Source of the DNA: Candidatus Heimdallarchaeum aukensis
Lineage (GTDB): Archaea; Asgardarchaeota; Heimdallarchaeia; Heimdallarchaeales; Heimdallarchaeaceae
Reading direction: 5' to 3'
DNA length: 64,000 bases
NCBI GenBank assembly: GCA_021513695.1
Contig: CP084166.1
Span: 2,368,001 to 2,432,000, forward strand
Shown here: positions 2 to 57,576 of the stretch, in pieces
How the letters are laid out: each line of letters opens with the position of its first letter
Numbering within the stretch: position 1 is the stretch's first letter
Translations under genes and position numbers: made by a program
The notes under the pieces: model-generated
What the model was told of the DNA's origin: nothing
The model's input: the letters and a program-made list of their open reading frames with translations, nothing else
Database searches by the model: none

Positions 2-2320
2 TTAAGCTCTATACTCGGAACTTCACTTATGCCAAATACTAATGCATTGTATTCTAATATCGATATTAGATTCCCATTTTTAGCTAATTTTACATTAGTA
101 AGACCCTTTCCAACAAATGTTGCCCCCAAATTGTCTGGGCTCTTTCAATGGGTGCTAAAAACTCCCTTATTTGTAATTTTTCCCACCTTTAATGCTTGTT
201 TGCATTATTACTTATCCGTTGAAGATAGTGCAAAATTTCCAAGAGTTATCATAACTAACTCTTATTCTGATACTTTAATTGAAGAAAATGGTATCTTCAA
301 AATGAATTATGAAGTAGAAAATATAGGGAACACTATCGCTTATAACACTACCTTGTTCTTTCCAATTCCTCGTGAACTTGAGTTCTATTCAAAAGAAAAC
401 CTTTCTGTTCCCGTTCTAAAGGACGAAATCGAAATAAATTCGAGTTTTAGTAATGAAATTAAATTGAAAATTGATATTCCTTATCTATTAAAAGAGACAG
501 ACTTACTTCTGCGAATATTAGGTTGGTATCAAAATGTTTCAACTAACGCATTAGAAAGATGGAATGATACTACTCAGATTCCACTATATGGAACTGAATT
601 AACACTGATCTCAGAATATGGGTTTCCATCTGATCTTGTTGACTTATTAGTAAATTTCATTATTCCATATCTTATGAAAAACTATGATACAGTTCTAGAG
701 CTATATAATGATCTAGATACTGTGGTCGAGATATTATATCTGTCACTTATTTCTACTTATAATACAACTTTCCACGCTTTCTATGATATGAAACCAATAT
801 TTAATTACATATCAGATGATTTTCAAATAATTCACACTTCTTTTGGAAGCTTTCTTTATTGTGTAATTCCAGAAATTGGTGTAAATGAAACTATTAGAGT
901 AAATTGGTCAATTGAAAATATTCCAACAAAATATGATCGAGTAGGAATATTTAACCTAACATCTGAAACCAATGATGATCAGGTTATAAAGAAATATGCG
1001 ATATTTCAAACAAAGAATACAGATTATCATACTCTTCTCATATCTAAATATTCAGAAACTGACAGTACAGGACGGATATTGAGTGATTACGATGAAATAA
1101 CGAATTCATTCATTAATATTGGTACCCGATTTAAGTATTCGAACATAAATGGGGATGAATATTATGGTTTGACAAACGGTATAAATATTCAAATTGGGGA
1201 TGATGAGGCCATCATAGAAAGTAAATTGACTACATCTAGTTCTGTATATTCTGTTGGGGATAATATATTTTTAACATTAAATATAACTAATAGAGGACAA
1301 ATACCTGCATATGATATTAATATTGAAATTGCCAACATCAAACTAGATTTCCTATGGCAACCTAGCGACATTATAAAATTAAAGAGTTTAACGATTGATT
1401 CGATTGCTCCTAACGAAAGTTTTGTGAGGGTAATTCAATTAAGAGCAAACAGCTATATAGGTTTTAATACTTATATTGCGTTTATTAGTTTTGTTTCTGA
1501 CAAAGATCAACATGGTGTTGAAGTAACTAATCCTTGGACAAATCAAACTTCAGTGTGGACATACGGTGGTGAAACAAAGAATATTGTTACTTCTACATTA
1601 GTTTCTGGATTGCTTATTCCTTCTCAGTCATTTGTGAATAAATCCAGACCTAGTTTTCCTTTACCTGAGATAGTGTCAAATGTTAGTTATTCACTCTCTC
1701 CCGCCAATTCTACTGTAACTGTACAATATGAAATAAGCAATACTGGCTTATCAGAAGCAAACGTTTCCATCACACAATTTCTCGATAATTCCACCTATTC
1801 TTCCCTAGAATCGGTCGAAATTAGAAAAAGTGAAGTCAGTTATAATTATGTAGCTAGTAGTTACCTAACTTATATTAAATTAAATCTGATAGAGCAAGTT
1901 ACTCTTCTTCCTGGAGAAAAAGTAACAATAACAGAGACTTATTCTGTTAAAAACACTAAATTAGTTCTTTCACCTTTACAAATAGAGTATTATTCACTTT
2001 ATGAGATAATGACAACTGACTTCCAATCCGACTACACTGATTTTGGTGAAGAAAGCACAGTTTTTGTTAGCGAGTATTTACACTTCAGCCCACTAACCGC
2101 AACCGAAAGCGATCAAGCCAAATTCAAATGGTCTTCGTATTCTGACAACATTGATATTGATTTACCACCAATAGAAGAGGAACAAACAACGAAATTTGTA
2201 GTTACTTTTCCTGAAATCCACTTTATGTTTATACTCGTGAGCGTTGGCACAGCAACAGTTGTAGTAAGTATATTTTCGATTATAAGTGCAATATTAAGAA
2301 AAAGAAGAGGATATATGTAA
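2..2320 (+). CDS. Large cell-surface (glyco)protein with a C-terminal TM anchor and basic tail. Probably 5'-partial, because the frame is open to the window edge and there is no signal peptide after M29.
   Basis: 763 aa ORF with many N-x-S/T sequons. The C-terminal hydrophobic helix is followed by RKRRGYM. The frame is open from position 2. Confidence 0.45.
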   Translation, partial: LSSILGTSLMPNTNALYSNIDIRFPFLANFTLVRPFPTNVAPKLSGLFQWVLKTPLFVIFPTFNACLHYYLSVEDSAKFPRVIITNSYSDTLIEENGIFKMNYEVENIGNTIAYNTTLFFPIPRELEFYSKENLSVPVLKDEIEINSSFSNEIKLKIDIPYLLKETDLLLRILGWYQNVSTNALERWNDTTQIPLYGTELTLISEYGFPSDLVDLLVNFIIPYLMKNYDTVLELYNDLDTVVEILYLSLISTYNTTFHAFYDMKPIFNYISDDFQIIHTSFGSFLYCVIPEIGVNETIRVNWSIENIPTKYDRVGIFNLTSETNDDQVIKKYAIFQTKNTDYHTLLISKYSETDSTGRILSDYDEITNSFINIGTRFKYSNINGDEYYGLTNGINIQIGDDEAIIESKLTTSSSVYSVGDNIFLTLNITNRGQIPAYDINIEIANIKLDFLWQPSDIIKLKSLTIDSIAPNESFVRVIQLRANSYIGFNTYIAFISFVSDKDQHGVEVTNPWTNQTSVWTYGGETKNIVTSTLVSGLLIPSQSFVNKSRPSFPLPEIVSNVSYSLSPANSTVTVQYEISNTGLSEANVSITQFLDNSTYSSLESVEIRKSEVSYNYVASSYLTYIKLNLIEQVTLLPGEKVTITETYSVKNTKLVLSPLQIEYYSLYEIMTTDFQSDYTDFGEESTVFVSEYLHFSPLTATESDQAKFKWSSYSDNIDIDLPPIEEEQTTKFVVTFPEIHFMFILVSVGTATVVVSIFSIISAILRKRRGYM

Positions 2321-2578
2321 TTACCTTAAATCAAAATCATCTGAAGTTAGATTCTTCAGAAAAGCCATCATTTCTTCTTGCATATCTTGACTTTGTTTCA
2401 TGCTCATTGTCTGTGCATAAAACATTGTAAACAATTCTCCTAGTAAGCATTGTGTGCATAGTTCTGTAGTAAGCTCCTCATTTGGAAATCTACAAGGAAA
2501 ATCAAGTTTTTTTACGTTACCATTTGGATCTCTTGCATTAATACTTGGCTTCCATTTACATTTTCTCGTTGACTGCAT
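2321..2578 (-). CDS. Small Cys-containing hypothetical protein
   Basis: 85 aa ORF with C-x21-C-x11-C-x2-C spacing. It abuts the stop of the upstream gene. No family was recognised. Confidence 0.3.
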   Translation of the reverse strand: MQSTRKCKWKPSINARDPNGNVKKLDFPCRFPNEELTTELCTQCLLGELFTMFYAQTMSMKQSQDMQEEMMAFLKNLTSDDFDLR

Positions 2579-2746
2579 TTTAATTCACCAAAAAGAAAAA
2601 ACTTTCTGATTTCCTTTTTCTTATTGGATTAAAAGCTTTATTGTAAAAACCTTTTCAGTTTCAAGATTTAAATGATATTACTTTTTATAATAACTGCTTG
2701 AGGTTAAAAGTGACATGTTTAAAAAGAAAAAACTTCTTTTTCGTTT

Positions 2747-5293
2747 GTGAAATGTCCCGATTGTAGTAAAACCTTAACGATTGAAGAAAAAAGTCACACA
2801 TTTACTTTTCGTTGTCAATTTTGTGGATACTACTCAAAAATTGTTGGTGCTAAAAATGTTGAAGAAGCTTATAAGAAGACTGTGGAGAGGGCTATAGCTC
2901 AAAACAATATAATCCAAATATCAAAAAAAGAATCAGAACAACTAGTTAAAAGATTAACTCTTCAAGAGAAAATTAATCTGATTAAAAAAGGGAATGGTGA
3001 TCCTTCTAATCTCCCAAATCCCTTAGTTAAATTGTTAAGACATCCTGACTTAGAACCAGTTTACTATTTATTCTTGGAGCAAAAGTCTCCAGCTTTAGCT
3101 AAAGATTCCCTTTTTCTTCCATCTGAATTAAGTTCCTTTCTTAAGAAAAAGGGTTTTGTTCAATTATATGAATTTCAAAAACAATCGTTCAAAAAGATAA
3201 CAGAAGGAAAAAATGTAGTTATTGTAGCCCCAACTGGAACAGGTAAAACCGAGGCTTTCCTTTTTGCTATATTAACAGAAATTTGGGAATCTCATCCTCA
3301 TCCTCTATTACGAAATGGTCCTTATGCAATCTTTATCTATCCAAATAAAGCTTTAGCTAGAGATCAACAAAAGAAGATAAGCGAATATAGTTCAAAATTG
3401 GGAATAACCTGTGAAATTTTTGATGGCGATACTTCACAATCCAAAAGAAAAAAGATTTTGGAAAATCCTCCTGATATTTTAATAACAAATCCTGATATGC
3501 TACACTATCATATGCGAAAACCTAGTTTTAGGAGTCTGCTTTATCCGGTAAAGTTTGTAGTTATAGATGAAGTTCATGTGGCCGTAGGAGCATTTGGAAC
3601 AAATCTTTATTTTATAATTAGGCGATTAAGTCGATTGACAAAAAATAAATTACAATTTATTGCTGTTTCTGCCACAATAGGTAATGCCGTTGAGTTTACT
3701 TCTAAATTATTTAACAGCCCTTCTATGGATATAGTAGAAGTAACAGATGCACGAAAAGCACCTACTCATCTTATGATTGTGTATCCATATGGAACAAGCC
3801 AGTATACACTTACAGGAGACATTACTCGATTACTTGCTTCATCTGGTAGAAAAATCTTAGTTTTCCAGAATAGTCATAAAAATGCAGAAATTATTAATCT
3901 CCTTCTCAGCCAGAGAATGAAAATTGACAGCGCAGTGCATAGAGCGGGTCTCACAAAGAAATATAGAGCACAGGTAGAAAAAAGATTTAGAGATAATGAA
4001 CTAGATGTGTTAGTTTCAACGCCTACTTTAGAATTAGGAATAGATATTGGCAGTGTAGATTCTGTTGTATCTTCAATTGTTGACTTTACAAGGTTTACTC
4101 AACGATTAGGTAGAGCAGGAAGAAAAGGACAAGAATCAATAGGTATTCTTATTCTTAGGGACAATGACCCGATCTCTACCTATTATGCTTTTTACCCTGA
4201 AGACTATTTTGAAGACATAAGAAAAGGATTTATTGAACCTAAAAATGAACTCATTGCCTACTACCAAATATTATCCGCTGTGATGGATAAACCTCTAAAA
4301 GAAAATGAATTTCAAGAGTTTAAACACATTATTTTGAATCTTGTAAATGATGGTTTAGTTAAATTAGCACCAAAAGGAGAATTTCAAATAGCTGATTATT
4401 CAAAGGTTAGAAAAGTTTTGTCAGTATTTAACTTAAGAGGAATCGGTGATACTATCGTAATTGAAGATATCAATGGCAAAGAACTAGGTAGTCGTTCAAT
4501 GCCAATGGCTGCAAGAGAGTTACATCCGGGGGCAATATATTTACTAGGCGGAAAATATTATCGCTCTCTGTCCTTTCAGTATGATCCGAGATTAGGTCGT
4601 GGAAGAGTTAAAGTTCAAAATATTCCGCCGCTTAATAAAAAAACTACTGCTTTACGTTTTGCAATGCCTGAGATTATTAAAATTCATGAATTAAAGAAAA
4701 TTACTGGAACAGAAGCAATTTACTGTGATCTACGAATAACAGAAAATGTAATTGGTTATTCACTTTCTGATATCTTTACTGATGAGAATGTTGAAAACAT
4801 CCCGTTAAAAGAACCTATTCAGTATTCTTTTGTAACTAAAGGATTTATGTTTGTGATGCCAAAACCTCAAAAAATCTTCAGAAATTACCCCGATAAGCAT
4901 GAAGATGAACTAGCCACTGGCACATTTCACGCAATTGAACATGTTTTAATCGAATCAAGCGAAATGATAACTGGTGGAGGAAGTAATGAAATAGGAGGTA
5001 TTTCAATGGGACATTCTGGAGCAATTTTTGTGTATGATGGAGCTAAAGGAGGTTCTGGTCTTTCAAAGCTACTTTTTGACCGATTAGATGAAGCGCTTGA
5101 TCGTTCATTAAATATCCTTAAGAAATGTACATGTAAAACAATGGACGGTTGTCCTAGATGTACCTATAGCTATCAATGTGGAAACAATAATTTCCCACTG
5201 AACAAGTATGGTGCTATTGAATCTCTGACACTTGTTAAAAAATCTAAATTAAAAATCATTGAAGATGTGAGCGGTTATAATCCTCTGATCTAG
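2747..5293 (+). CDS. DEAD/DEAH-box helicase of the COG1205/YprA(MrfA)-like family. It has an N-terminal zinc ribbon and a C-terminal DUF1998 Cys-cluster domain.
   Basis: Walker A APTGTGKTEAF, motif II VVIDEVHV, SAT (SATIGN), motif VI RLGRAGRKG. N-terminal CPDC...CQFCGY. C-terminal CTCKTMDGCPRCTYSYQCG. Confidence 0.75.
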   Translation: MKCPDCSKTLTIEEKSHTFTFRCQFCGYYSKIVGAKNVEEAYKKTVERAIAQNNIIQISKKESEQLVKRLTLQEKINLIKKGNGDPSNLPNPLVKLLRHPDLEPVYYLFLEQKSPALAKDSLFLPSELSSFLKKKGFVQLYEFQKQSFKKITEGKNVVIVAPTGTGKTEAFLFAILTEIWESHPHPLLRNGPYAIFIYPNKALARDQQKKISEYSSKLGITCEIFDGDTSQSKRKKILENPPDILITNPDMLHYHMRKPSFRSLLYPVKFVVIDEVHVAVGAFGTNLYFIIRRLSRLTKNKLQFIAVSATIGNAVEFTSKLFNSPSMDIVEVTDARKAPTHLMIVYPYGTSQYTLTGDITRLLASSGRKILVFQNSHKNAEIINLLLSQRMKIDSAVHRAGLTKKYRAQVEKRFRDNELDVLVSTPTLELGIDIGSVDSVVSSIVDFTRFTQRLGRAGRKGQESIGILILRDNDPISTYYAFYPEDYFEDIRKGFIEPKNELIAYYQILSAVMDKPLKENEFQEFKHIILNLVNDGLVKLAPKGEFQIADYSKVRKVLSVFNLRGIGDTIVIEDINGKELGSRSMPMAARELHPGAIYLLGGKYYRSLSFQYDPRLGRGRVKVQNIPPLNKKTTALRFAMPEIIKIHELKKITGTEAIYCDLRITENVIGYSLSDIFTDENVENIPLKEPIQYSFVTKGFMFVMPKPQKIFRNYPDKHEDELATGTFHAIEHVLIESSEMITGGGSNEIGGISMGHSGAIFVYDGAKGGSGLSKLLFDRLDEALDRSLNILKKCTCKTMDGCPRCTYSYQCGNNNFPLNKYGAIESLTLVKKSKLKIIEDVSGYNPLI

Positions 5294-5367
5294 TTGTAAT
5301 ACCCTAGTAATGTTCACATCATGTGCCCATGTTATATCATTTTTTTAGGTAAACCAAGAATTGGTTC

Positions 5368-5787
5368 TTGATCAACATGCTATCGTCATCAAATCTTAAT
5401 GTGAAAGAGATGCTTAATATTGCTCTCGACTGTATTTTCCCAACTAGTGAATCAATAGAACCTGAAATATTAAAAGAAATCACAAAATTCTTAGAACAAC
5501 AAGAACCTCAAGCTCCAACAGAAGATGCTGAAATTGTTAGAGGTGAAATAAGGAAAGCATTAATCCACTTTAAAAATCGTCCTTATTTGTATAATTCTAG
5601 AAAGAAAATTGAGAGTCTATTACTTAAGAACGAAAATTGGAAAAAATTCATTATTGCTCCTCATTCATTTAAAGATGAACTTATTGAAGCAGGGTTATCA
5701 TCAAAAGAGATAGCATTGTTGAAATCATCTCTTGAGAATGCAGAAAACACATTAAACCTCCTAAAACATATTCCCCAACCTCACTAA
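5368..5787 (+). CDS. Hypothetical protein
   Basis: 139 aa ORF co-directional with and 75 bp downstream of the helicase. No recognisable motif. Confidence 0.35.
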   Translation: MINMLSSSNLNVKEMLNIALDCIFPTSESIEPEILKEITKFLEQQEPQAPTEDAEIVRGEIRKALIHFKNRPYLYNSRKKIESLLLKNENWKKFIIAPHSFKDELIEAGLSSKEIALLKSSLENAENTLNLLKHIPQPH

Positions 5788-5912
5788 TCTTTTTGCATTC
5801 TCCTTTTTTTAAATCCTATTCTTTTTTCTTGTTAATTTCATTCTCCTTTTTACTCTCAATTACATGAAAAAAAAAGATAATGTTTTAAATTATTGATTTT
5901 TTCTTAATTTTA

Positions 5913-7433
5913 ATGGCAGATTTAAGACTTAAATACGGTACATCGCTAAATAAACAAAAAATGATGGAAATAACTATTGTAAGTATTATTGCACTATTTC
6001 TCTTTGTTTTGTCATTATATGTTAAAGATGCTTTTTGTTCTTGGTTCAATATGCAGAAGGGTGCAGGTTTTTACTGGTATTATGACCCCTCTAACCCTGA
6101 AGCTGTTTGGTACATAGAAGGATACGTTGATGCCTCATATTATTATCAACCTTATTTGTATGCATTTAGATATCAGAATTGGAATCCTTACTTGGGTGGA
6201 GAAGGACCATTGAATGGTTATGCTTATGGCCCCCTTTTTATATATGGTCTTTATTTTATTTCTCTTTTTGTTTCTATTGCAAATCCTTCTCTAACGAATT
6301 TTCAAGTGGTAATTGAATCAGTAAAATGGACACATATTGTTTTTGACTCATTATCGGTTGTTATGCTTTTTTTTATTGTTATCAATTTAGAAATAATGAA
6401 GTCAAAGAAATTTTCTAAATATTTAACTGGTGTTATAGCATCTGTTGTATATATTTTCATGCCCTTTAATCTGCTATACATTGATGCTTTAAGTCTTAAT
6501 ATTCCTCAAATGACTTTCTTTGTTCTTCTTGGAACATTTTTATTTAGAAAAGAAAAATATATTTTATCTTCATTTGCCATGACTTTGGGTTGGTTATCGA
6601 AACAGATGCCACTATTTATTGTTGTTCCTTGGTTTATAATACTCTGGAAAAAAGATGAAGACTTGAAAAAAGCACTTGTAGATTTCTTATTCCCTTTCTT
6701 TATTTTCACTTTGATATTCTCAATTCCTTGGTTAATATTGTCACCGGGAGGATATTTATTTAGAATATTTGGACCTGGAAAACCATTATCTATCGTTTCT
6801 TTGTCTTCCAAATATAATGGATATACTGTCACCTTGGCACATAGTTTTCTGAAATTAGGAAGCGAAACTTTAGCAAACATATATTTGTTTCTAAATAAGT
6901 ATATGATACCTTTTTTTGTTTTTTATATACTTACGTTATTAATTTGCTATTTTAATGCTTTAGATATATTTAATGACGAAAAACAATTTTACATTTATAA
7001 CACAGTAGTAATTCTTGTGTCTCATATATTCATTTCTAGAGGAATTTACAAATATTATGATGCATTTTTTTCTCCTTTCTTCATTCTTTTTCTTGTTTTA
7101 CTACTTTGGTCTTATTTTGACTTATGTAGATTCAACAATAGAACTTTATTGTATTCTTATTTTTTCGTTTCAATAATTTCCAGTTCAATTATTTTGTACT
7201 ATATTAATTGGGTAATAATCATCAAATCTAGATTCCTTCATCCTCTCTACTTGTTATTAATTTTTATTTTCATTTCTAGCTTTTTAGAAAGTAATTTTTA
7301 CTCGAGTCTAACCAAGTTTGAAAGCTACAGAATGATAATATTAGATATCAAAAAGATTTACTCTGATATAAAAAACTCTCTTCGAATACACAAAAAGGAA
7401 AAAGATCCGAAAATAAATCCGAATTTAGAATAA
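5913..7433 (+). CDS. Polytopic integral membrane protein, possibly a GT-C-fold glycosyltransferase (DUF2029-like)
   Basis: 506 aa, aromatic-rich, at least 10 predicted TM helices, N-terminal soluble loop rich in Y/W/P. Assignment by architecture only. Confidence 0.35.
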   Translation: MADLRLKYGTSLNKQKMMEITIVSIIALFLFVLSLYVKDAFCSWFNMQKGAGFYWYYDPSNPEAVWYIEGYVDASYYYQPYLYAFRYQNWNPYLGGEGPLNGYAYGPLFIYGLYFISLFVSIANPSLTNFQVVIESVKWTHIVFDSLSVVMLFFIVINLEIMKSKKFSKYLTGVIASVVYIFMPFNLLYIDALSLNIPQMTFFVLLGTFLFRKEKYILSSFAMTLGWLSKQMPLFIVVPWFIILWKKDEDLKKALVDFLFPFFIFTLIFSIPWLILSPGGYLFRIFGPGKPLSIVSLSSKYNGYTVTLAHSFLKLGSETLANIYLFLNKYMIPFFVFYILTLLICYFNALDIFNDEKQFYIYNTVVILVSHIFISRGIYKYYDAFFSPFFILFLVLLLWSYFDLCRFNNRTLLYSYFFVSIISSSIILYYINWVIIIKSRFLHPLYLLLIFIFISSFLESNFYSSLTKFESYRMIILDIKKIYSDIKNSLRIHKKEKDPKINPNLE

Positions 7434-7577
7434 AAATATGATTTTTCAATTATCATTTCTTAACTTTATACTTTCCCTTTTTTAAGAAATCTTCTATAAT
7501 AGCAATGTTTGACCTATATCAAAAAGAATTATAAAGTATAAAATTTCATTATTAGTAGTAAATAGTAAGGTATTCAA

Positions 7578-8138
7578 ATGAAGGAAACAAAAAATCGTGC
7601 TGTTTCTCCAGTTATAGGAACAATGCTAATGATTAGTTTAGTTATTGCGGCGAGTGTATTTGTGGCAATTTTTATTGGCAATATTAGAGTTCCTGCAATT
7701 GAAATTGGAGAAGAGACTCCCTCTCTTTATTCAGTAAACATTGATGTTATTTATTTTAACATAACTGATACTAATTCTAATGGACTAAATGATACACTTG
7801 TAGTAAAGTTTAATCTGGATTTAGATTCCCCAACAATTTATGTACAAGATATTGACATTTTGTTGCCTACAGGAAACTTACTTGATGATATAGTTCCATG
7901 GGTTATTATTGATTCAAATAGCTCTTGGAATTCAGACTTCTATGGATATTCTGTTTTGAATGGTAGTTTGAATGCTACATTTACTGTACAATGTTATGAC
8001 CTATCTAAGTCTGTAGGTGAAATTGCTCCAGGATATTCATTTTATTATTTAATTAAATATAACTATGTTTCTGTCAAAGGAAACCAATTGACTCTTATTT
8101 CTGATGTTTATCAATCAGAGTTAATAGAGACAAAATAA
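7578..8138 (+). CDS. Archaeal type IV pilin-like protein (class III signal peptide)
   Basis: N-terminus KNRAVSPVIGTMLMISLVIAASVF matches the archaeal prepilin/archaellin signal (R/K-G/A-V-S-P-V-I + hydrophobic helix). Secreted domain with N-glycosylation sequons. Confidence 0.65.
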   Translation: MKETKNRAVSPVIGTMLMISLVIAASVFVAIFIGNIRVPAIEIGEETPSLYSVNIDVIYFNITDTNSNGLNDTLVVKFNLDLDSPTIYVQDIDILLPTGNLLDDIVPWVIIDSNSSWNSDFYGYSVLNGSLNATFTVQCYDLSKSVGEIAPGYSFYYLIKYNYVSVKGNQLTLISDVYQSELIETK

Positions 8139-8214
8139 TATACAACATAATAATACATTTTTTTCTTTTTTCAAAACATTTTTTTAGATATTTGTGCTTA
8201 CTAATTTGAACATA

Positions 8215-8949
8215 ATGTCCCTTGAACCAAAACGAGCTTATAAAATAGTTTTAATTGGAGACCCAGAAGTAGGAAAAACTTCCATAAGAAGAAGATATAT
8301 GGGAAAAACGTTTAAAGGAGAATATTTGAAAACAATAGGTGCTGACTTTGCAGCACAAAAAGTAGAAATTGAAGATGAGGTCGTTTTATTAACAATATGG
8401 GATCTAGCTGGGCAAACTATCTTTCATGGAATGCGTTCTTCCTTTTACCAAGGATGTAAGTCTGCGTTAGTTGTTTTTGATGTAACAAATGTTGAAAGTT
8501 TGAACAATGTAGAAAAATGGACAGAAGAAGCTGTAACCTATGCAAAAAGTTCATTACAAGAGATTTATTTAATAGGCAATAAAATAGATTTGAAGAAAGA
8601 GAGAGTAGTTACAAAAGAACAAATAGACAAAAAAGTAAAACAATTGGAATCTTTAGTTAACTTTCCTATTAGAGTTTATGAAACATCTGCTCTTACAGGA
8701 GAAAATATCCAATCTTTATTTATGGATCTAAGTAGACGATTAATTATTAGTGATAACGTTAAATTTGAAGAAGAAATAGAAGCTAAACGTGCTCATGATG
8801 TTAAGAAAGAAAAAAGAAAAGAACCAGGTAAAGATGTTGATTATAAATCTAAAGATGACTTGAAAGAGATAATAAACCATATCGAGCTTCATGTTGAGAA
8901 AATAAATGACTTTATCAAATTATTGAAAAAACGATTAGATAAACTGTAA
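8215..8949 (+). CDS. Rab/Ras-like small GTPase with a charged, coiled C-terminal extension
   Basis: G1 GDPEVGKTS, switch I YLKTIGADF, G3 WDLAGQ, G4 GNKID, G5 ETSAL. ATG at 8215 is preferred over the GTG at 8194. K/E-rich C-tail, no CAAX. Confidence 0.8.
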   Translation: MSLEPKRAYKIVLIGDPEVGKTSIRRRYMGKTFKGEYLKTIGADFAAQKVEIEDEVVLLTIWDLAGQTIFHGMRSSFYQGCKSALVVFDVTNVESLNNVEKWTEEAVTYAKSSLQEIYLIGNKIDLKKERVVTKEQIDKKVKQLESLVNFPIRVYETSALTGENIQSLFMDLSRRLIISDNVKFEEEIEAKRAHDVKKEKRKEPGKDVDYKSKDDLKEIINHIELHVEKINDFIKLLKKRLDKL

Positions 8950-50614: not shown

Positions 50615-50995
50615 TTAAAAATCATAAACCCAATTTGTTTCGGGAATGTACAGCAAATTTAAGATAAGTGTCCATACTGCTATAGTTACAATAAAAAACT
50701 GAAAGATTGCAGAAGTATAAAATGATTTAGTTTTAAGTCCAGTATTTTTGTTTCTATAAATTAAAAACCAAACTGAAGATGTTAATAGAAATACTCCAAG
50801 TAATGTAAGTCCTGCTGGCCAGTTTCTAAAATTAGTTACACCAAAGATTATTCCTGTAACTATTCCCACTAAAACTTTTGAATAGTACATTTTATTTGTT
50901 AAAGGCATTTCTTTAATCTTTTCTAACCAGTTGACGGGATTCAAATTGTTTTTAACTTTATTCTTAATTTTGTTCATATCAATATTCAAACTCAT
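50615..50995 (-). CDS. Small membrane protein, hypothetical
   Basis: 126 aa, 3 TM helices. Confidence 0.35.
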   Translation of the reverse strand: MSLNIDMNKIKNKVKNNLNPVNWLEKIKEMPLTNKMYYSKVLVGIVTGIIFGVTNFRNWPAGLTLLGVFLLTSSVWFLIYRNKNTGLKTKSFYTSAIFQFFIVTIAVWTLILNLLYIPETNWVYDF

Positions 50996-51011
50996 TCACC
51001 CAGGTGTTAAT

Positions 51012-53027
51012 ATGAAATCATCATTAACTTCATTAGATATCAATTGTCTTGTTGAGGAACTGAGACCCGAAATTATCGGCAGTTGGCTCAATAACGTCTA
51101 TAACATTGGAGAGAAATTACTTATTTTAAAGTTTCGAAAGTCTAGCAAAATTAATTTTGAGCTTATTATTGAACTAGGAAAAAGGTTTCATATAACAAAA
51201 TATGCCCGAAGTAAACCACCTGCTCCGAACAACAAGGTAGCAATGATGCGTAAACATATAAAAGGACTTCCTGTTGATGATTTTTATCAAATTGGTTTAG
51301 ATAGAATTATAGTATTTGAGATAGCTTACAAAGATTCACATTATAAGCTAGTTATTGAGTTGTTTGGAGAGGGGAATTACATTCTAGTAGATCCTGCAAA
51401 CAGGATATTGGTTGCTCAAACATATAGAAAAATGCGAGATAGAGATATTCATCCCGGAAAAGAGTTTTTCTTACCTCCACAACAAGAAAAAGATATTCTT
51501 TCAATTAGTAAGGACGATATTCTGGAATCTCTATCAAGTAAAGAAGAAAAAATCATCCCACTTCTCAATAAACTTTTAGGGTTAGGCCCTAAATATTCAA
51601 AAAATATTCTGGATAAGGCAAAAATCAATAACAAGGTAACAACTGAGTTAACCACCAACGAAAAAGAGTCACTCATAAAAGAAATACTAGAATTAAAGAA
51701 AATAATAGAAGAAAAAAGATATTCTCCTGTTGAGTATTTTGATGGTGAAGAAGTTATTGATATATCGCCTATTCCAATAGAGAAGTATAATGATTTAGAA
51801 AAAAAAGAACTAGATTCATTTAATGATGCTCTAGATGACTTTTTCACTGAAAATGAAGAGACACCAGAGTTCGAGAAAACAGAAGGAAAAATAAAGAGTA
51901 CTCAGTCAAAACATGAAAAAATTCTCCAGAATCAAATTGAACATAAGAAAAAACTAGAATTACAAGAGGAGTTAGAAAGAAAAAAAGGTGATTTACTATA
52001 TGCTCACTTCTCATTAGTTGATGAATTGCTAAACACCATTATAAAAGCGAGGAAAAATAATGTTCCTTGGTCTGAAATAGAGAAAAAAATGGATGAAGCA
52101 AAAAAGAAGAATATTCCTGCAGCATTAATCTTACACAAGATCAACCCTAAAACAAAAGAAATATGGGTAAAATTGGAAGATTTAGAAACTGGAGAAAATG
52201 AAATAATTGTACTAGATTTCACTCTTTCTGTTGCCGATAATGCGAATAAATTTTATGAAAAAAGTAAGAAGGCAAGGAGAAAAATACCAGGGGCCATCCA
52301 AGCAATAGAACGAACAAAACAACAAATTGAGAAAATGAAAGAGAAAGGAGAGCAACTTCTTACTGAAAAAGAAACTAGAAAAATGGTTGAAAAACGTCCA
52401 AAACGATGGTTCGAAAAATTTCACTGGTTTTTATGCGATGACACTGTAATCGTTGGAGGAAAAGATGCTAAATCCAATGAAAGATTACTTAAAACTTATC
52501 TGGAAGACGATGATCTCTTTTTCCATGCAGATGTGCATGGAGCCCCTTATGTTATAGCTAAAGACGGTAGGAAAAAACTCTCTGATGAATGTGTTAAAGA
52601 AATAGCAGCTTTTGCTCTATCGTTCTCAAGTTTGTGGAAAGCAAAAAAATTAGTGGGCGATGTCTATTACGTAAATCCTGATCAAGTGAGCCTAAGTGCT
52701 CCTTCTGGACAATATCTGGCTAAAGGAAGTGTAATGATATATGGAGAAAAGAATTATGTTAAGAATGTGGAAGTCAATCATGTGTTGGGATTAATCATTC
52801 ATGAAAACTACGCTCAGGTAATTGGAGGACCTATGAGAAGTGTTGACAATAAAACTGACATGATAATAAGATTAAAACCTGGCGAAATTAGTAAAGGAAA
52901 AATAGCAAAAATAATAAAGCAAAAGTTTATTGAGATGTGTCCAGAAGAAGATAAGTACAAAGTTGAAGCTCTTGATATTAATGAAATAATGGACTTCATT
53001 CCTGGAGATTCAGAGATAATAGAATAA
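51012..53027 (+). CDS. NFACT family protein (Rqc2/NEMF/FbpA homolog; ribosome-quality-control-like)
   Basis: NFACT-N region (…VYNIGEKLLILKF…), central coiled coil. NFACT-R/DUF814 segment WFEKFHWFLCDDTVIVGGKDAKSNERLL…FFHADVHGAPYVIAK. ATG at 51012 is preferred over the TTG at 50931. Confidence 0.75.
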   Translation: MKSSLTSLDINCLVEELRPEIIGSWLNNVYNIGEKLLILKFRKSSKINFELIIELGKRFHITKYARSKPPAPNNKVAMMRKHIKGLPVDDFYQIGLDRIIVFEIAYKDSHYKLVIELFGEGNYILVDPANRILVAQTYRKMRDRDIHPGKEFFLPPQQEKDILSISKDDILESLSSKEEKIIPLLNKLLGLGPKYSKNILDKAKINNKVTTELTTNEKESLIKEILELKKIIEEKRYSPVEYFDGEEVIDISPIPIEKYNDLEKKELDSFNDALDDFFTENEETPEFEKTEGKIKSTQSKHEKILQNQIEHKKKLELQEELERKKGDLLYAHFSLVDELLNTIIKARKNNVPWSEIEKKMDEAKKKNIPAALILHKINPKTKEIWVKLEDLETGENEIIVLDFTLSVADNANKFYEKSKKARRKIPGAIQAIERTKQQIEKMKEKGEQLLTEKETRKMVEKRPKRWFEKFHWFLCDDTVIVGGKDAKSNERLLKTYLEDDDLFFHADVHGAPYVIAKDGRKKLSDECVKEIAAFALSFSSLWKAKKLVGDVYYVNPDQVSLSAPSGQYLAKGSVMIYGEKNYVKNVEVNHVLGLIIHENYAQVIGGPMRSVDNKTDMIIRLKPGEISKGKIAKIIKQKFIEMCPEEDKYKVEALDINEIMDFIPGDSEIIE

Positions 53028-53257: not shown

Positions 53258-54538
53258 TTGGTGAGTCCTATCACTCAAAAGAAGAAATGCCCTGTATGTG
53301 GATATGTGACAAAAGATCATCGTTTAATGAATTGTCCTAATTGTGGAACAGAGCTTATTTTAGATGTTGTTCTTCCAAGCCTAAATGTTCAGGATTCTTT
53401 TTTTGATATACAAGGAAACGAGTTAAAAGAAACACATAATCTAGGGAACAATAGTAAAAAAATTGACCAACCAGCTTGGCAAATAATGGATCAGGAAGGT
53501 GGAGCGACACAATATCCACTATTTGTAAAAAAGGAAGTAAATCTGTATCCTGTAATTCAAATACCCAGAGTTTCATTTGATTTTTTTAAGCAATATAGAG
53601 TTATATATCTAATTCTAATTTCAATACTCTCAATGTTACAATCAGCTTCTTTTTTGTTCCTAATATCGAGTTTATATGTCATGTTAAATCGAATTAAGTC
53701 GTCTAGCGCTGTTTCTATTATTCCATTTTTACTAGTAGGATTAATCTGTTATTCACTATTTTCTTATTTACAATTTAAATTTATATTTCATATAAAGCAA
53801 AAAAACTTCCCAGAAAGAATATTAGAAAAAGATTCTTCCTTTACTAGTTTTGTTCTAATTAATGCTTTACAATTGTTATTTTCCGCTATTCTCTTAGGAG
53901 TAATTTTCTTATTAATAGCAAAATCGGGAGCAAATATTGAGAAACCAATTATTTCTCAACTTATGTTGGGATTAGGGCTTCTACTAATTGTTCCATTGTT
54001 ACTAGTCTTTAGAACAGCAAAAATTTTAAGCTTGATGAGGAAAACAGGGATCTTTCAAAACATGTACGATGCCATTCAATTTTCAAAATTTTCATTAAGA
54101 AGGGGATACGGGATTCTCTTTGTAAGTATATTATTACCTATTTTCATAGTTACTCTTGGGGTCGGATCTATAACTACATGTTTATCTTCTCTTTTCAGAA
54201 TTTCTGGTTACACAGTGTCAGTATTGCATATTGTTACTACTGTATTTTTACTTATATTGGTGTCTGGATTATTCCTTATTTCAAATAATGAAGATGTTGA
54301 TATTTTGTCCATCTATGAATCATACTTGTTTGCTTTCTCCGTTCCACCTAAAATAACTTGGTTAAATAAAGAAACCAATATCGAAAGCTCGAAAGAAGAA
54401 AAACAAGAATTTGAAGATTTATTTAATCTAGACAATGTTGACTCTTTAGTTGAAGTAAAGTACTGCCCAGTTTGTTCAAGTAAATTACCTGATGATGTTG
54501 ACTATTGTGTGAGCTGTGGTCACCCTCTAAGAGAATGA
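53258..54538 (+). CDS. Polytopic membrane protein bracketed by N- and C-terminal zinc ribbons, hypothetical
   Basis: N-terminal CPVCGY…CPNCG. About 8 TM helices. C-terminal CPVCSS…CVSCGHPL. Confidence 0.45.
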   Translation: MVSPITQKKKCPVCGYVTKDHRLMNCPNCGTELILDVVLPSLNVQDSFFDIQGNELKETHNLGNNSKKIDQPAWQIMDQEGGATQYPLFVKKEVNLYPVIQIPRVSFDFFKQYRVIYLILISILSMLQSASFLFLISSLYVMLNRIKSSSAVSIIPFLLVGLICYSLFSYLQFKFIFHIKQKNFPERILEKDSSFTSFVLINALQLLFSAILLGVIFLLIAKSGANIEKPIISQLMLGLGLLLIVPLLLVFRTAKILSLMRKTGIFQNMYDAIQFSKFSLRRGYGILFVSILLPIFIVTLGVGSITTCLSSLFRISGYTVSVLHIVTTVFLLILVSGLFLISNNEDVDILSIYESYLFAFSVPPKITWLNKETNIESSKEEKQEFEDLFNLDNVDSLVEVKYCPVCSSKLPDDVDYCVSCGHPLRE

Positions 54539-54567: not shown

Positions 54568-55305
54568 TCACTTGAATTTTTTTACGAGTTGTTTTAGAAT
54601 TGTTTGTATTGTTTCTATTTTTTCTTCTATTTTCTCCACTCTTTTAACAAGCTTATTGAATTCGTCAGCTGATACTTCTACTTCTCCAGAGACTGATTCC
54701 ATCATCGATTCTTTAATATCTATAATTCCAGGAGCAAGTTCTTTTTTCTTTGTTACTTTAACGTTATTTGCTTCGAGAAGTGTGTAAGCCAAGAAATCAA
54801 ACGTTTCTTGGATATTTTGTCCTGTTAATGCCGATGTTTCACTATAGTAGAAGTTTATTCCCGTTTCAGTCATTAGTCTCTGACAAAATTCTATAGCCAT
54901 TTTCTGTGATACTCTCCTATTTTCTGGAGGAAGATCGATCTTATTAGCTATTACAAAGTAAACTAGAATTCCAGAATTTGAACCTTCAATACTCTCTTCT
55001 AGCCATGTTCGTAGATTAGTCATTGTTTGTTGATCTTGGATATCAAATACCAACAAAGCAGCTATAGCTCCTTTATAAAAAGTTGACCTAACAGCTGAAT
55101 AGCTATCTTGTCCTGCAAGATCCCATATCTGAAAAGTGATGTCATTGTCTTCTACTTTTACTTTTTTTGAAGCAAAGTCAGCCCCAATTGTTTTAAGATA
55201 GTCTCCTGTAAATCCTTTTCCCATATATCTCTCTCTAATAGAGGTCTTTCCTACTGCTCCATCTCCAGCCAATACAATTTTAAAATTCCATTTTTTTCCT
55301 GTCAA
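54568..55305 (-). CDS. Rab/Ras-like small GTPase with a C-terminal coiled-coil extension
   Basis: G1 GDGAVGKTS, switch I YLKTIGADF, G3 WDLAGQ, G4 ANKID, G5 ETSAL. TTG start. K/E-rich tail, no CAAX. Confidence 0.8.
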   Translation of the reverse strand: MTGKKWNFKIVLAGDGAVGKTSIRERYMGKGFTGDYLKTIGADFASKKVKVEDNDITFQIWDLAGQDSYSAVRSTFYKGAIAALLVFDIQDQQTMTNLRTWLEESIEGSNSGILVYFVIANKIDLPPENRRVSQKMAIEFCQRLMTETGINFYYSETSALTGQNIQETFDFLAYTLLEANNVKVTKKKELAPGIIDIKESMMESVSGEVEVSADEFNKLVKRVEKIEEKIETIQTILKQLVKKFK

Positions 55306-55309
55306 GATT

Positions 55310-55996
55310 TCACCCTTGTTGTTTGTATTTAGCTAATTCTTCTTCTAGCTCATCTATTCTTCTCTGAGCTTCAAGTAATCTCTTTTGGAATGTTTCTCCT
55401 ACTTCCTGCTGAGTTCTTTCAAAGTGTGCTTTTGCTTCTTCTAACTCTTTCCTCATTTTTTCTCTTTCCTCACGAGCTTTCTTTATTTCTTCACTCTCAC
55501 GAACTGTTTGAACAGCCTTTTTGAGCAATGTTTCCAAGTCATCTTTTGAAACATCAAAATTTGAGGAAGTAAGCATCTTTAGAGCGTTAAATTCATCAGC
55601 AGAGATTGTAGGTCTACTTTTCATTAGGTCTTCAACCTTCTCTTGTAGAGCTTTTTTCTCGATAAGTAGATCAGAAACCTGTGCTTTCAGTTGTCTATTT
55701 TCTTCACTTAATTGAGTAGAATTTTGTGTTTCAATATCAAGTGATCTTCTAAGATGTTCAATCTCATCAGAACTTTCTCCTAATTGCTTTATGTATCGAA
55801 CTAGCATAACTATATATTCACGCAAAAGAGGATGGATTAAATGCCAATATTGATGGATTTCTCGTTCAATATCAGATAATCTCGGATCTTTCATGTTTGG
55901 AGGGAGTTTTACAAAAACAGGGTTTTCAACATCAATTTGGGGATAATACTCTGGAATATAATTGTAGATTGTTTCTCCTTTATACTTTTTAAACAT
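55310..55996 (-). CDS. Coiled-coil protein encoded immediately upstream of the small GTPase, 5 bp gap (possible regulator or effector)
   Basis: 228 aa. N-terminal globular about 90 aa, then a long heptad-rich E/K/L/Q region. Confidence 0.4.
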   Translation of the reverse strand: MFKKYKGETIYNYIPEYYPQIDVENPVFVKLPPNMKDPRLSDIEREIHQYWHLIHPLLREYIVMLVRYIKQLGESSDEIEHLRRSLDIETQNSTQLSEENRQLKAQVSDLLIEKKALQEKVEDLMKSRPTISADEFNALKMLTSSNFDVSKDDLETLLKKAVQTVRESEEIKKAREEREKMRKELEEAKAHFERTQQEVGETFQKRLLEAQRRIDELEEELAKYKQQG

Positions 55997-56160
55997 AGTT
56001 TAACCTCACTTTTTTAATCAATTATATGTATCAATTACATTTAATAAAAGTTTTATGTCAAAGGAAAAACTAATGAAAGTTAAATTGAGAATGTTTTTTA
56101 AAGTTAGTTAGTAATTCTAAGTAGGCCTAAATAATTTACAAATCTACGATTGTGAAAGAA

Positions 56161-57576
56161 ATGAGTGAAGAAAATAAAGAACAGTTTTTTGAGTTAGTGA
56201 AAGAGATAGATGAGATTGTTTTCCAACACATGAAAGATAAAGCTACATCAATAGAGTTTAAACAAGTCTTAAAAAAAGAAAAAAGTGATATTAAACCTAT
56301 TAATTCAATACTTGATGCAGAAAATGAGGAAACAGAGATATCATCAGTTATGGATAATATAGGTATTAATACAAAAAAGGCAAATATTCTTGAAGAAGAG
56401 CAGTTGTTATTAGAAGAAGCAGAGGAAAATAAAATATTTTTACAATTAAAGGACAAGTATCCTGACTATAATATCTATATAAAGCAGATATATTGTTCAA
56501 GTAGCTATCAAGAGGACAGAGTAATTCAGCTTTTACAAAAAGATCTAACCTCGCTCAAAGACATACGAATTAAGAAAAGTGAGATCAAGTTTTTTCCATT
56601 TTTATTGCATAATATTAAGTTTGTATTAGAAAAACCATTTTCTATTAGTTTTTACGATTATGAAATCCCTATCTATAGAACTTTACAAGAAGAAAAACTG
56701 CGTTTTTATCCAATAGGAGAATATCCTTTTGAAGAAAGAGAGAAAATTTTTGAAAATAAGTGGATTCCACTAATAAGTAGTTTGCAACACTCATTAATAA
56801 AATCAATTAATGATGGAAAGTTAGCTGAAAAGAGAGTAGAAAGAATAGATAAAAAAAATATTTCACCTGTTGATTTTAGTAAATTACAAGAATCAATCAG
56901 TGCTTCTATAGATAGTGCAAAGAAAGCTTTTTCAAATCCTAATAAAGAAAACACGTCTAATTTTGAAACATTTTGGCAGAATGAGAAACAGTTCAACAAT
57001 GCTATATTACAATTAAAAAAACAGTTAGTAAATATAGAGCATGAGTTAAAAGAAGAAGATGATAGGATAAAAGAAGAGTATCTAGAATTAAAGAAAAAAC
57101 AAGTAAAATTGAATAAAGAAGCAAAAATGTATAAGCAACTTGAAAATCAAGGAATAAAAATTGAACGAGAAAAAAAAGAAAAAGTTGCAAAGATGTTATC
57201 TGAATTTCAAAGCAAAAAAGAATCAGTTCAGAAAAAACTCTTTGAATTTAAGAAGAAAAAGAACTTGTTGGAGCAACTGACAGAGCTTATTAAAAATAAG
57301 AATATGACTGATTTTGAAAAGAACTTTAGAATGCTCTTCAAGAAAGATGTTGACAATGCATTAGAAGCAATTAAAACAAGCATCGAAGAGCAAGGATCTA
57401 ATATAAATTTAGTTGAAAGTAACCATCTTGAAAAAAATATTAGGTTACATGTTGTTTGGGTTCCAATATTCTTAATAACCTTCAAAGCATCACAAGAGGA
57501 ACGTAAAATAGATGGAAAAGCATTTTATTCAGATTTTGATAATAAAGTCTTCATTATTTCTCCTACCACAAGTTAG
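56161..57576 (+). CDS. Large K/E-rich coiled-coil hypothetical protein
   Basis: About 470 aa, highly charged, long predicted coiled coils. The track ORF starts with a GTG at 56152; the first ATG is at 56161. Confidence 0.4.
   Translation: MSEENKEQFFELVKEIDEIVFQHMKDKATSIEFKQVLKKEKSDIKPINSILDAENEETEISSVMDNIGINTKKANILEEEQLLLEEAEENKIFLQLKDKYPDYNIYIKQIYCSSSYQEDRVIQLLQKDLTSLKDIRIKKSEIKFFPFLLHNIKFVLEKPFSISFYDYEIPIYRTLQEEKLRFYPIGEYPFEEREKIFENKWIPLISSLQHSLIKSINDGKLAEKRVERIDKKNISPVDFSKLQESISASIDSAKKAFSNPNKENTSNFETFWQNEKQFNNAILQLKKQLVNIEHELKEEDDRIKEEYLELKKKQVKLNKEAKMYKQLENQGIKIEREKKEKVAKMLSEFQSKKESVQKKLFEFKKKKNLLEQLTELIKNKNMTDFEKNFRMLFKKDVDNALEAIKTSIEEQGSNINLVESNHLEKNIRLHVVWVPIFLITFKASQEERKIDGKAFYSDFDNKVFIISPTTS

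Follow-up and report, generated by a model that had tools for sequence, protein, structure and literature searches.

A two-gene cassette encoding a coiled-coil protein and a long-tailed Rab-like GTPase is conserved across four divergent archaeal clades

Small GTPases are numerous in Asgard archaea, and the interaction partners of these proteins are largely unknown. Can the neighbourhood of a GTPase gene point to such a partner? The question is raised by a stretch of 64,000 nucleotides (nt) from Candidatus Heimdallarchaeum aukensis (contig CP084166.1, positions 2,368,001–2,432,000 of the forward strand; guanine-cytosine (GC) content 32%), hereafter the window, in which a gene for a Rab-like GTPase directly follows one for a coiled-coil protein. 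A first-pass annotation, made from the letters alone, had remarked on this 228-amino-acid (aa) open reading frame (ORF) upstream of the GTPase, and had proposed that the two proteins are cognate. Both genes are indeed present, on the minus strand; we refer to their products as the partner and the GTPase. The genes, their junction and the adjoining intergenic region are arranged as follows (window coordinates):

55310–55996, minus strand: partner gene, 228 aa, called as an ORF with an ATG start and a TGA stop (55312–55310)
54568–55305, minus strand: Rab-like GTPase gene, 245 aa, called as an ORF with a TTG start
55306–55315, minus strand: junction; a Shine-Dalgarno-like GGGTGA (55315–55310) overlaps the partner stop and is followed by the spacer AATC, then TTG
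55997–56151, no strand assigned: AT-rich intergenic region of 155 nt, shared with the divergently transcribed gene for a 474-aa protein; probable promoter from which partner and GTPase genes would be transcribed as one unit

The two genes are separated by a spacer of 4 nt (AATC, 55309–55306). The tight spacing reported at first is therefore correct, while the reported gap of 5 bp is the difference between the boundary coordinates. The GGGTGA motif lies over the partner stop codon and 4 nt 5' of the TTG; together with the short spacer, this is the layout expected for translational coupling. The TTG start itself is credible, because it is preceded by GGGTGA and because a GGTGA motif stands ahead of the equivalent start in many of 27 orthologous pairs (in which the start codon is ATG in 17 cases, TTG in six and GTG in four). 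At the other end of the unit, the intergenic region contains a GTGAGGT Shine-Dalgarno motif 5 nt before the partner ATG and TTTATTAAA ~45 nt upstream. The partner and the GTPase are both 92–94% identical to their counterparts in Ca. Heimdallarchaeum endolithica PR6, and the ratios of nonsynonymous to synonymous substitution rates (dN/dS) against these orthologues are 0.046 (partner) and 0.075 (GTPase). Hence both ORFs are real genes under strong purifying selection; the low dN/dS, the equivalent starts and the GGTGA motifs argue against the possibility, raised at first, that the GTPase is a pseudogene without a functional start.

Is the adjacency peculiar to this genome? When each GTDB species was scanned through one genome, 26 partner-encoding loci were obtained, and in all 26 an orthologous GTPase (62–92% identity) lies 3' of the partner gene on the same strand. 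The spacer measures between −1 and 25 nt in 25 of these genomes. In the exception (locus L018), a 2.1-kb insertion sits exactly in the partner–GTPase spacer, with both flanking genes intact; the insertion carries a 642-aa TnpB/Cas12-like ORF (L018 positions 6743–8671, minus strand) with a C-terminal CxxC...CxxC and RuvC-like motifs.

The reverse test, a metagenome scan starting from the GTPase, yielded 80 loci for analysis. Here, the partner is present in all three cases in which an orthologous GTPase is accompanied by enough upstream sequence (metagenome contigs L032, L033 and L041). Among short (167–196 aa) Rab-like GTPases for which 700 nt or more of upstream sequence is available, it is present in none of 43; the raw count was one of 44, that one being the L041 orthologue, truncated by the contig end. 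Every partner-linked GTPase possesses a linker and a C-terminal heptad helix.

The pair also occurs in three divergent clades:

L029/L030 clade: GC content 50%; partner 31% identical to that of the window; spacer 2 nt; GTPase 266 aa
L039/L040 clade: GC content ~40%; partner (~260 aa) 26% identical; GTPase start overlaps partner end; GTPase 280–304 aa
L113 clade: partner (199 aa) 34% identical over 62 residues; spacer 15 nt; GTPase 329 aa

The GTPases of these clades are ~47–58% identical to that of the window. GC content spans 30% to 50% across three of the four pair-bearing clades (L113 excluded), and no neighbouring gene of the pair is common to the distant clades. The partner and GTPase genes thus constitute a two-gene cassette, whose members stay within a few bases of each other in four divergent clades of archaea. 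The proposal that the upstream protein is the cognate partner of this GTPase, for which the first-pass annotation had named conserved synteny as the deciding observation, is supported by the 26 of 26 genomes, the three metagenome contigs and the three divergent clades. A further contig (L038, positions 3698–3993) contains a partner-like gene 5' of a long-tailed GTPase that is split into two frames, either by a sequencing frameshift or as a decaying copy.

Do the two proteins also evolve together? A mirror-tree test was performed on pairwise distances in 23 genomes, with 5000 permutations and with a neighbouring but unrelated NFACT protein as a proxy for the phylogeny. Partner and GTPase distances are correlated with r = 0.887, and the partial Mantel correlation controlling for NFACT is 0.57 (p = 0.0002). 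When either the partner or the GTPase is instead compared with an equally linked membrane protein (described below), the partial Mantel values are −0.06 and −0.22. These results provide moderate evidence for a specific functional coupling of partner and GTPase, a coupling that does not imply physical contact. The NFACT gene (50931–53027, plus strand) encodes an NFACT/RqcH-type ribosome quality-control protein (NFACT_N, E = 6.6e-65; NFACT-R_1, E = 1e-28).

What kind of GTPase is it? The protein can be divided into three parts:

54766–55305, minus strand: residues 1–180, Rab-like G domain with complete G1–G5 and catalytic Gln66 (Pfam Ras, E = 9.7e-40)
54676–54765, minus strand: residues 181–210, NNV and GIID motifs, then a variable linker (alignment of 27 orthologues)
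54571–54675, minus strand: residues 211–245, predicted C-terminal coiled-coil helix of ~4.5 heptads (heptad pattern)

The motifs read from the sequence at first—G1 GDGAVGKTS, switch I/G2 YLKTIGADF, G3 WDLAGQ (containing the catalytic Gln), G4 NKID and G5 ETSAL, along with the TTG start—are all present, and GDGAVGKT, T39, WDLAGQ, NKID and ETSAL are invariant across the 27 orthologues. The protein falls within the Ras superfamily (136 bits to Pfam Ras, for which the cut-off is 21.6) and carries every motif required for GTP binding and hydrolysis. In a ranking by similarity to PDB entries, its best solved relatives are a Thorarchaeota Rab (7EZB; E = 1.5e-34) and Rab7, with Rab11 and Rab9 also listed. 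At the RabF1–F5 positions it reads IGADF, TFQIW, SYSAVR, FYKGA and LVFDIQ, partial matches to the eukaryotic consensus (IGVDF, KLQIW, RFRSIT, YYRGA and LVYDIT). An assignment to Arf, Arl or Sar was rejected: only ~8 residues (MTGKKWNF) precede strand β1, and the Pfam Arf score is 56 bits against 136 for Ras.

The C-terminal end is where this GTPase departs from the Rab pattern. The protein ends in ...LKQLVKKFK without a C-terminal cysteine motif (CC, CxC or CAAX), and the last 65 residues are free of cysteine in all orthologues. In the C-terminal helix of the window GTPase, L/I/V/M/F occupy 100% of the a and d heptad positions, versus 13% of positions elsewhere. Where Rabs have a lipid anchor, the tail of this GTPase is thus predicted to consist of a flexible linker of variable length and a heptad helix. 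The same architecture—G domain, linker of very different length, C-terminal helix—recurs in partner-linked GTPases of every clade; in the distant clades, whose GTPases measure 266–329 aa, far more sequence follows the G domain, reaching ~150 Pro-rich residues in L113. Among the known Asgard Rab-like GTPases, the domain layout of this protein represents a new architectural variant.

Which residues set the partner-linked GTPases apart? A comparison of 32 partner-linked with 61 short Rab-like GTPases identified only five positions that are conserved in the former (distant clades included) and rare in the latter: M28, K30, K38, I113 and L176. The first three sit in the segment between helix α1 and switch I (RYMGKGF...YLKTIG), and K38, which directly precedes the switch I threonine, is found in every partner-linked GTPase (100%) and in none of the short ones (0%). 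The K38 pattern fits a subfamily-specific surface at switch I. Considered alongside the fact that partner and heptad helix strictly go together, these switch I residues suggest that the relation between partner and GTPase may have two parts: (i) a tether through the tail, and (ii) a contact that depends on the nucleotide state.

The partner is predicted to consist of four segments:

55772–55996, minus strand: residues 1–75, conserved N-terminal module (KGETI, LPP, ER, YW..HP..EY) with (near-)invariant columns; predicted local distance difference test score (pLDDT) 81–92
55619–55771, minus strand: residues 76–126, central heptad coiled coil by heptad count; pLDDT 89–93 from residue 81
55493–55618, minus strand: residues 127–168, hinge with conserved Pro129 and two short helices; pLDDT 54–60 for residues 131–170
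55313–55492, minus strand: residues 169–228, charged C-terminal helix with the signature F-E-x-x-Q-x-E-V-G-x-x-F-Q (alignment)

Database searches assign the partner to no known family. It has no significant match in Pfam or NCBIfam (all matches are sub-threshold coiled-coil families), a profile search against PDB sequences gave nothing below E = 0.2, and a fold search gave no match. In these searches, no family match or fold was found for TBC, DENN, Vps9, Sec2, Mss4, TRAPP, longin or Roadblock/MglB, bearing out the earlier statement that Roadblock, longin and TBC motifs are lacking. A homologue search gave 72 sequences at 54–99% identity; those that are named come from Heimdall-type metagenome-assembled genomes, except for one labelled Pacearchaeota. 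When 1.84 billion representative proteins were searched exhaustively with a profile, only 17 matches emerged, among them a few divergent full-length relatives, and, at the sensitivity of HMMER, no eukaryotic homologue.

The one suggestive signal, to Rab11-FIP3 (PF25450), scored 18.6 bits for the window partner and 27.6 bits for that of L029, against a threshold of 31.9, and reached E ≤ 0.01 in three of 56 family members; since it is sub-threshold and confined to these three, it was rejected as coiled-coil noise. A second candidate was likewise discarded: the hexapeptide SADEFN occurs in both proteins, each time at a helix start (partner residues 131–136, 55589–55606, minus strand; GTPase residues 212–217, 54660–54675, minus strand). 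The orthologous sequences degenerate to S/T-x-x-E, as fits a helix N-capping box, so the hexapeptide is not considered significant as a shared functional motif.

The partner was modelled twice with AlphaFold2. With 29 close homologues, the mean pLDDT was 68 and residues 1–37 were unmodelled; with 56 sequences, including those of the divergent clades, it rose to 78.8 (predicted template modelling (pTM) score 0.38), with residues 11–120 at 81–93. The second model shows an extended, conserved N-terminal peptide, a helix (residues 38–53), a break at His55-Pro56, a long helix (56–126), a hinge (131–170; pLDDT 54–60) containing helices 133–146 and 151–166, and a second long helix (169–227). The initial description of a globular N-terminus followed by a long coiled coil was roughly right: the model has a conserved peptide and helices at the N-terminus, and the long helix is followed by a hinge and a second one. 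As modelled, the partner is elongated and all-helical, without a TBC, DENN, longin, Roadblock, Sec7 or Vps9-like fold; for TBC, longin and Roadblock, this follows from a predicted layout that is entirely helical.

Conservation extends beyond the heptad pattern. In the central coiled coil, L/I/V/M/F occupy 71% of the a and d positions, versus 11% elsewhere. W51, P56, Q196, F203 and L217 are invariant across all partner clades, the last three within the C-terminal signature, which itself recurs in the distant clades; E198 is nearly invariant across clades. Within Heimdallarchaeaceae, R45 and E44 are invariant and the N-terminal K-G-E-T-I and L-P-P peptides are conserved. Judged by these columns, the N-terminal module and the C-terminal signature are more specific than a generic coiled coil. 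The window partner has all the features by which we recognise the family: a length of ~200–270 aa, an N-terminal K-x-x-T-[IL], a helix break of the form YW..HP..[DE][YF], a central heptad coiled coil and a C-terminal Q-x-[EQ]-[VI]-x-x-x-F-[QM]. It is the founding member of a very small, previously undescribed family that is predicted to be all-helical.

A second Rab-like GTPase is encoded elsewhere in the window:

8194–8949, plus strand: second Rab-like GTPase, 251 aa, with its own C-terminal heptad helix (ORF, alignment)

The first-pass annotation had pointed out that the G2 (YLKTIGADF) and G3 (WDLAGQ) motifs are identical in the two GTPases, which is correct, and had taken this as the mark of a lineage-specific paralogue family, which goes too far, as such identity is not in itself the mark of a two-member family: in public metagenomes, the patterns YLKTIGAD or G[DP]GAVGKTS together matched more than 600 stretches, 490 of which encode relatives. 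The more specific link between the two, to judge from their alignment, is a homologous C-terminal heptad helix. Upstream of the second GTPase, no paralogous partner was found; the ORF 5' of it (7578–8138, plus strand) is pilin-like, with a class III signal peptide, and the window contains only one member of the partner family. The pilin-like ORF and a GTPase of the second type are also adjacent in metagenome contig L110.

In Heimdallarchaeaceae, the pair stands within a wider block that includes two further genes:

53258–54538, plus strand: 426-aa protein with ~six predicted membrane helices and N- and C-terminal zinc ribbons (Pfam), convergent to the GTPase gene
56152–57576, plus strand: 474-aa protein without a family match, adjoining the block wherever the contig extends far enough

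The 426-aa protein is the membrane protein used in the mirror-tree comparison. Its gene stands beside the pair in 26 of 26 genome loci and in metagenome contigs L032–L034, a linkage limited to Heimdallarchaeaceae, and it evolves ~3 times faster than its neighbours (mean distance 1.36 vs 0.40–0.48). In seven orthologues, the only Pfam matches are the zinc ribbons, with no family for the core, and a Yip1-like, Rab-interacting identity was therefore not adopted; a homologue search gave only two sequences. In an alignment, the most conserved elements are both zinc ribbons, the loop RIAKxLSSLRxSGxFQ...QFPKFSxKR and YE...PP..W, all of which would face the cytoplasm in the predicted topology. A membrane protein encoded near the pair in the L040 clade was considered as a distant homologue and rejected (hhalign probability 0.2%); it is transporter-permease-like and adjoins a gene with ABC-ATPase motifs.

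The 474-aa protein has no Pfam or NCBIfam match, and nor do three orthologues. Its gene adjoins the block in nearly all genomes, lying beside the partner gene in the window and in Ca. H. endolithica and beside the membrane protein gene in the others, which implies local rearrangements by which it was kept at the block. Neither the 426-aa nor the 474-aa protein was found beside the pair in the distant clades, and for this reason it is the two-gene cassette that constitutes the conserved evolutionary unit.

One Kariarchaeaceae contig deserves a separate description. In L112 (positions 1322–7931), a partner homologue is followed 3' by a PhoU-domain gene, and a divergent unit close by encodes a 294-aa protein with a terminal CxxC, a 191-aa short Rab-like GTPase and an 826-aa HEAT-repeat protein; the tail-less short GTPase lies 1.5 kb away on the opposite strand.

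What, then, does the partner do? The reading that we favour, and to which we give roughly even confidence, is that it may be a dedicated, co-translated coiled-coil binding partner—an adaptor or an effector—of a long-tailed Rab-like switch. Under such a mechanism, the two proteins would be made in matched amounts and assembled into one complex, where the partner would serve as an adaptor or effector of the coiled-coil kind. By docking on the partner coiled coil, the C-terminal helix of the GTPase would provide a permanent tether, in the place that belongs in eukaryotic Rabs to the prenyl anchor and the hypervariable region. The G domain, with its subfamily residues beside switch I, could then engage the N-terminal module of the partner, or other targets, according to its nucleotide state. 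For Heimdallarchaeaceae, where the zinc-ribbon membrane protein is linked to the pair, the cytoplasmic face of that protein would be the probable place of action.

Several points weigh against this reading. Part of the mirror-tree signal may reflect an expression level or a local mutation regime that adjacent genes share. The model of the partner has a pTM of only 0.38. The second GTPase has a comparable C-terminal helix and no adjoining partner gene. Finally, in two branches of the partner family (L031 and L112 of Kariarchaeaceae, L027 and L028 of the P0092 clade) the homologues do not stand beside a long-tailed GTPase; in these, the gene 3' of the homologue encodes a PhoU-domain or an HHH-domain protein.

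One alternative, which we regard as unlikely and which would correspond to the novel regulator class suggested in the first-pass annotation, is that the partner is a catalytic regulator that touches the switch transiently, either as a dimeric coiled-coil, Sec2p/Rabin8-type guanine nucleotide exchange factor (GEF) or as a GTPase-activating protein (GAP) supplying a residue. Precedent exists in the eukaryotic coiled-coil Rab GEFs Sec2p and Rabin8. The position of M28, K30 and K38 beside switch I would suit such a contact, the retained catalytic Gln means that hydrolysis could be stimulated, and invariant polar residues are available in the partner helices (R45 and E44 in Heimdallarchaeaceae, Q196 in all clades and, nearly so, E198). 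It would also suit the gene arrangement: PMC9481161 describes prokaryotic GTPase and GAP genes, such as MglA/MglB, as typically operonic. Against this stands the negative outcome of the searches for Sec2, TBC, DENN, Vps9, Mss4, longin and Roadblock. Moreover, a transient regulator would leave unexplained why the partner tracks so exactly with the C-terminal heptad helix of the GTPase, and translationally coupled, near-stoichiometric expression would be more typical of stable complexes.

It is also improbable, in our view, that the two proteins serve the same pathway without binding each other, the partner being a structural or cytoskeletal coiled coil or a membrane scaffold whose expression is merely coupled to that of a GTPase that homodimerises through its helix. 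The helix is a canonical, leucine-zipper-like heptad repeat that could well form homodimers, and both the partnerless second GTPase and the two clades with unaccompanied partner homologues are readily accommodated. Such an arrangement does not account for a rate co-variation that partner and GTPase show with each other but not with the membrane protein, which is linked to the same degree, nor for an adjacency that outlasts complete turnover of the neighbouring genes in four clades. That the adjacency is a neutral accident inherited within one archaeal family is very improbable, and chance adjacency is effectively excluded: most sampled loci do belong to Heimdallarchaeaceae, a family that also preserves gene order more widely around the pair, but the pair recurs in three further clades despite the divergence of both proteins (partner 26–34% identical, in one case over 62 residues only; GTPase ~47–58%), a GC range of 30% to 50% in three of the four clades, and unshared neighbours, with spacers of −1 to 25 nt and GGTGA in many.

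How does a dedicated adaptor or effector of this kind compare with known systems? Eukaryotic Rabs are served by a range of dimeric coiled-coil effectors and exchange factors, as in RILP–Rab7, the Rab11-FIPs, BicD–Rab6, Atg16L1–Rab33B and Sec2p–Sec4p. The partner differs from these in having neither sequence nor fold homology to any of them. The system as a whole differs from eukaryotic Rab systems in that (i) the anchor would be a coiled-coil helix rather than a lipid, (ii) the genes are operonic, and (iii) no eukaryotic homologue of the partner was found. The arrangement of a prokaryotic small GTPase gene beside the gene for its cognate partner is shared with MglA–MglB, and since that pair is known, the concept is not new. 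The components, on the other hand, are different: MglB has an alpha/beta Roadblock fold, whereas the partner is predicted to be all-helical and has no Roadblock or longin match, and the window GTPase is Rab-like (best matches Rab7 and Thor-Rab) rather than MglA-like.

A second bacterial parallel is the Streptomyces conservon (cvnA–D), which encodes a membrane sensor, a Roadblock protein, a DUF742 protein and a Ras-like GTPase. Like the four-gene block of Heimdallarchaeaceae, it is a conserved cluster in which a small GTPase is joined by a membrane protein and by accessory proteins. Unlike in the conservon, the membrane protein of the block carries zinc ribbons but lacks a kinase domain, and only the two-gene core is conserved beyond one family; the non-GTPase components of the two systems are not homologous.

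Among archaeal proteins, the closest comparison is Thor-Rab (PDB 7EZB), the best solved relative of the G domain (E = 1.5e-34), which likewise has complete G1–G5 motifs. Thor-Rab and other Asgard Rab-like GTPases also share with the window GTPase the lack of a C-terminal prenylatable Cys and of known Rab escort machinery. Thor-Rab, for which no partner is known, is truncated at its C-terminus (Tran et al. 2024, PMC10933270), whereas the window GTPase has a linker, a 35-residue heptad helix and a dedicated operonic partner. In the cultured Lokiarchaeon MK-D1, GTPase genes are generally not found in operons with genes for the candidate regulators Roadblock, longin and TRAPPC3 (PMC10933270). A full-text literature search found no description of the partner family or of the partner–GTPase pair. 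Since no homologue of the partner was found in eukaryotes, the system was probably invented within this lineage and is not the ancestor of a eukaryotic module.

In at least four clades, then, one Rab-like subfamily is accompanied by a fixed operonic partner that co-evolves with it, which provides a concrete, testable pair for Asgard cell biology. The variable linker and coiled-coil helix bear on how Rab-type switches may have been targeted to a membrane or scaffold before prenylation. The partner–GTPase family resides in Heimdallarchaeaceae, a group of which one cultured species has internal membrane compartments without clear homologues of TRAPP, Sec23/24 or SNAREs (bioRxiv 10.1101/2025.11.06.686947). 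It is conceivable, though quite doubtful, that the pair, the zinc-ribbon membrane protein and the 474-aa protein together form an archaeal Rab-tether/effector module that organises or traffics internal membranes. If so, anchoring through a protein–protein coiled coil would have arisen independently to fill the role that prenylation has in eukaryotic Rabs.

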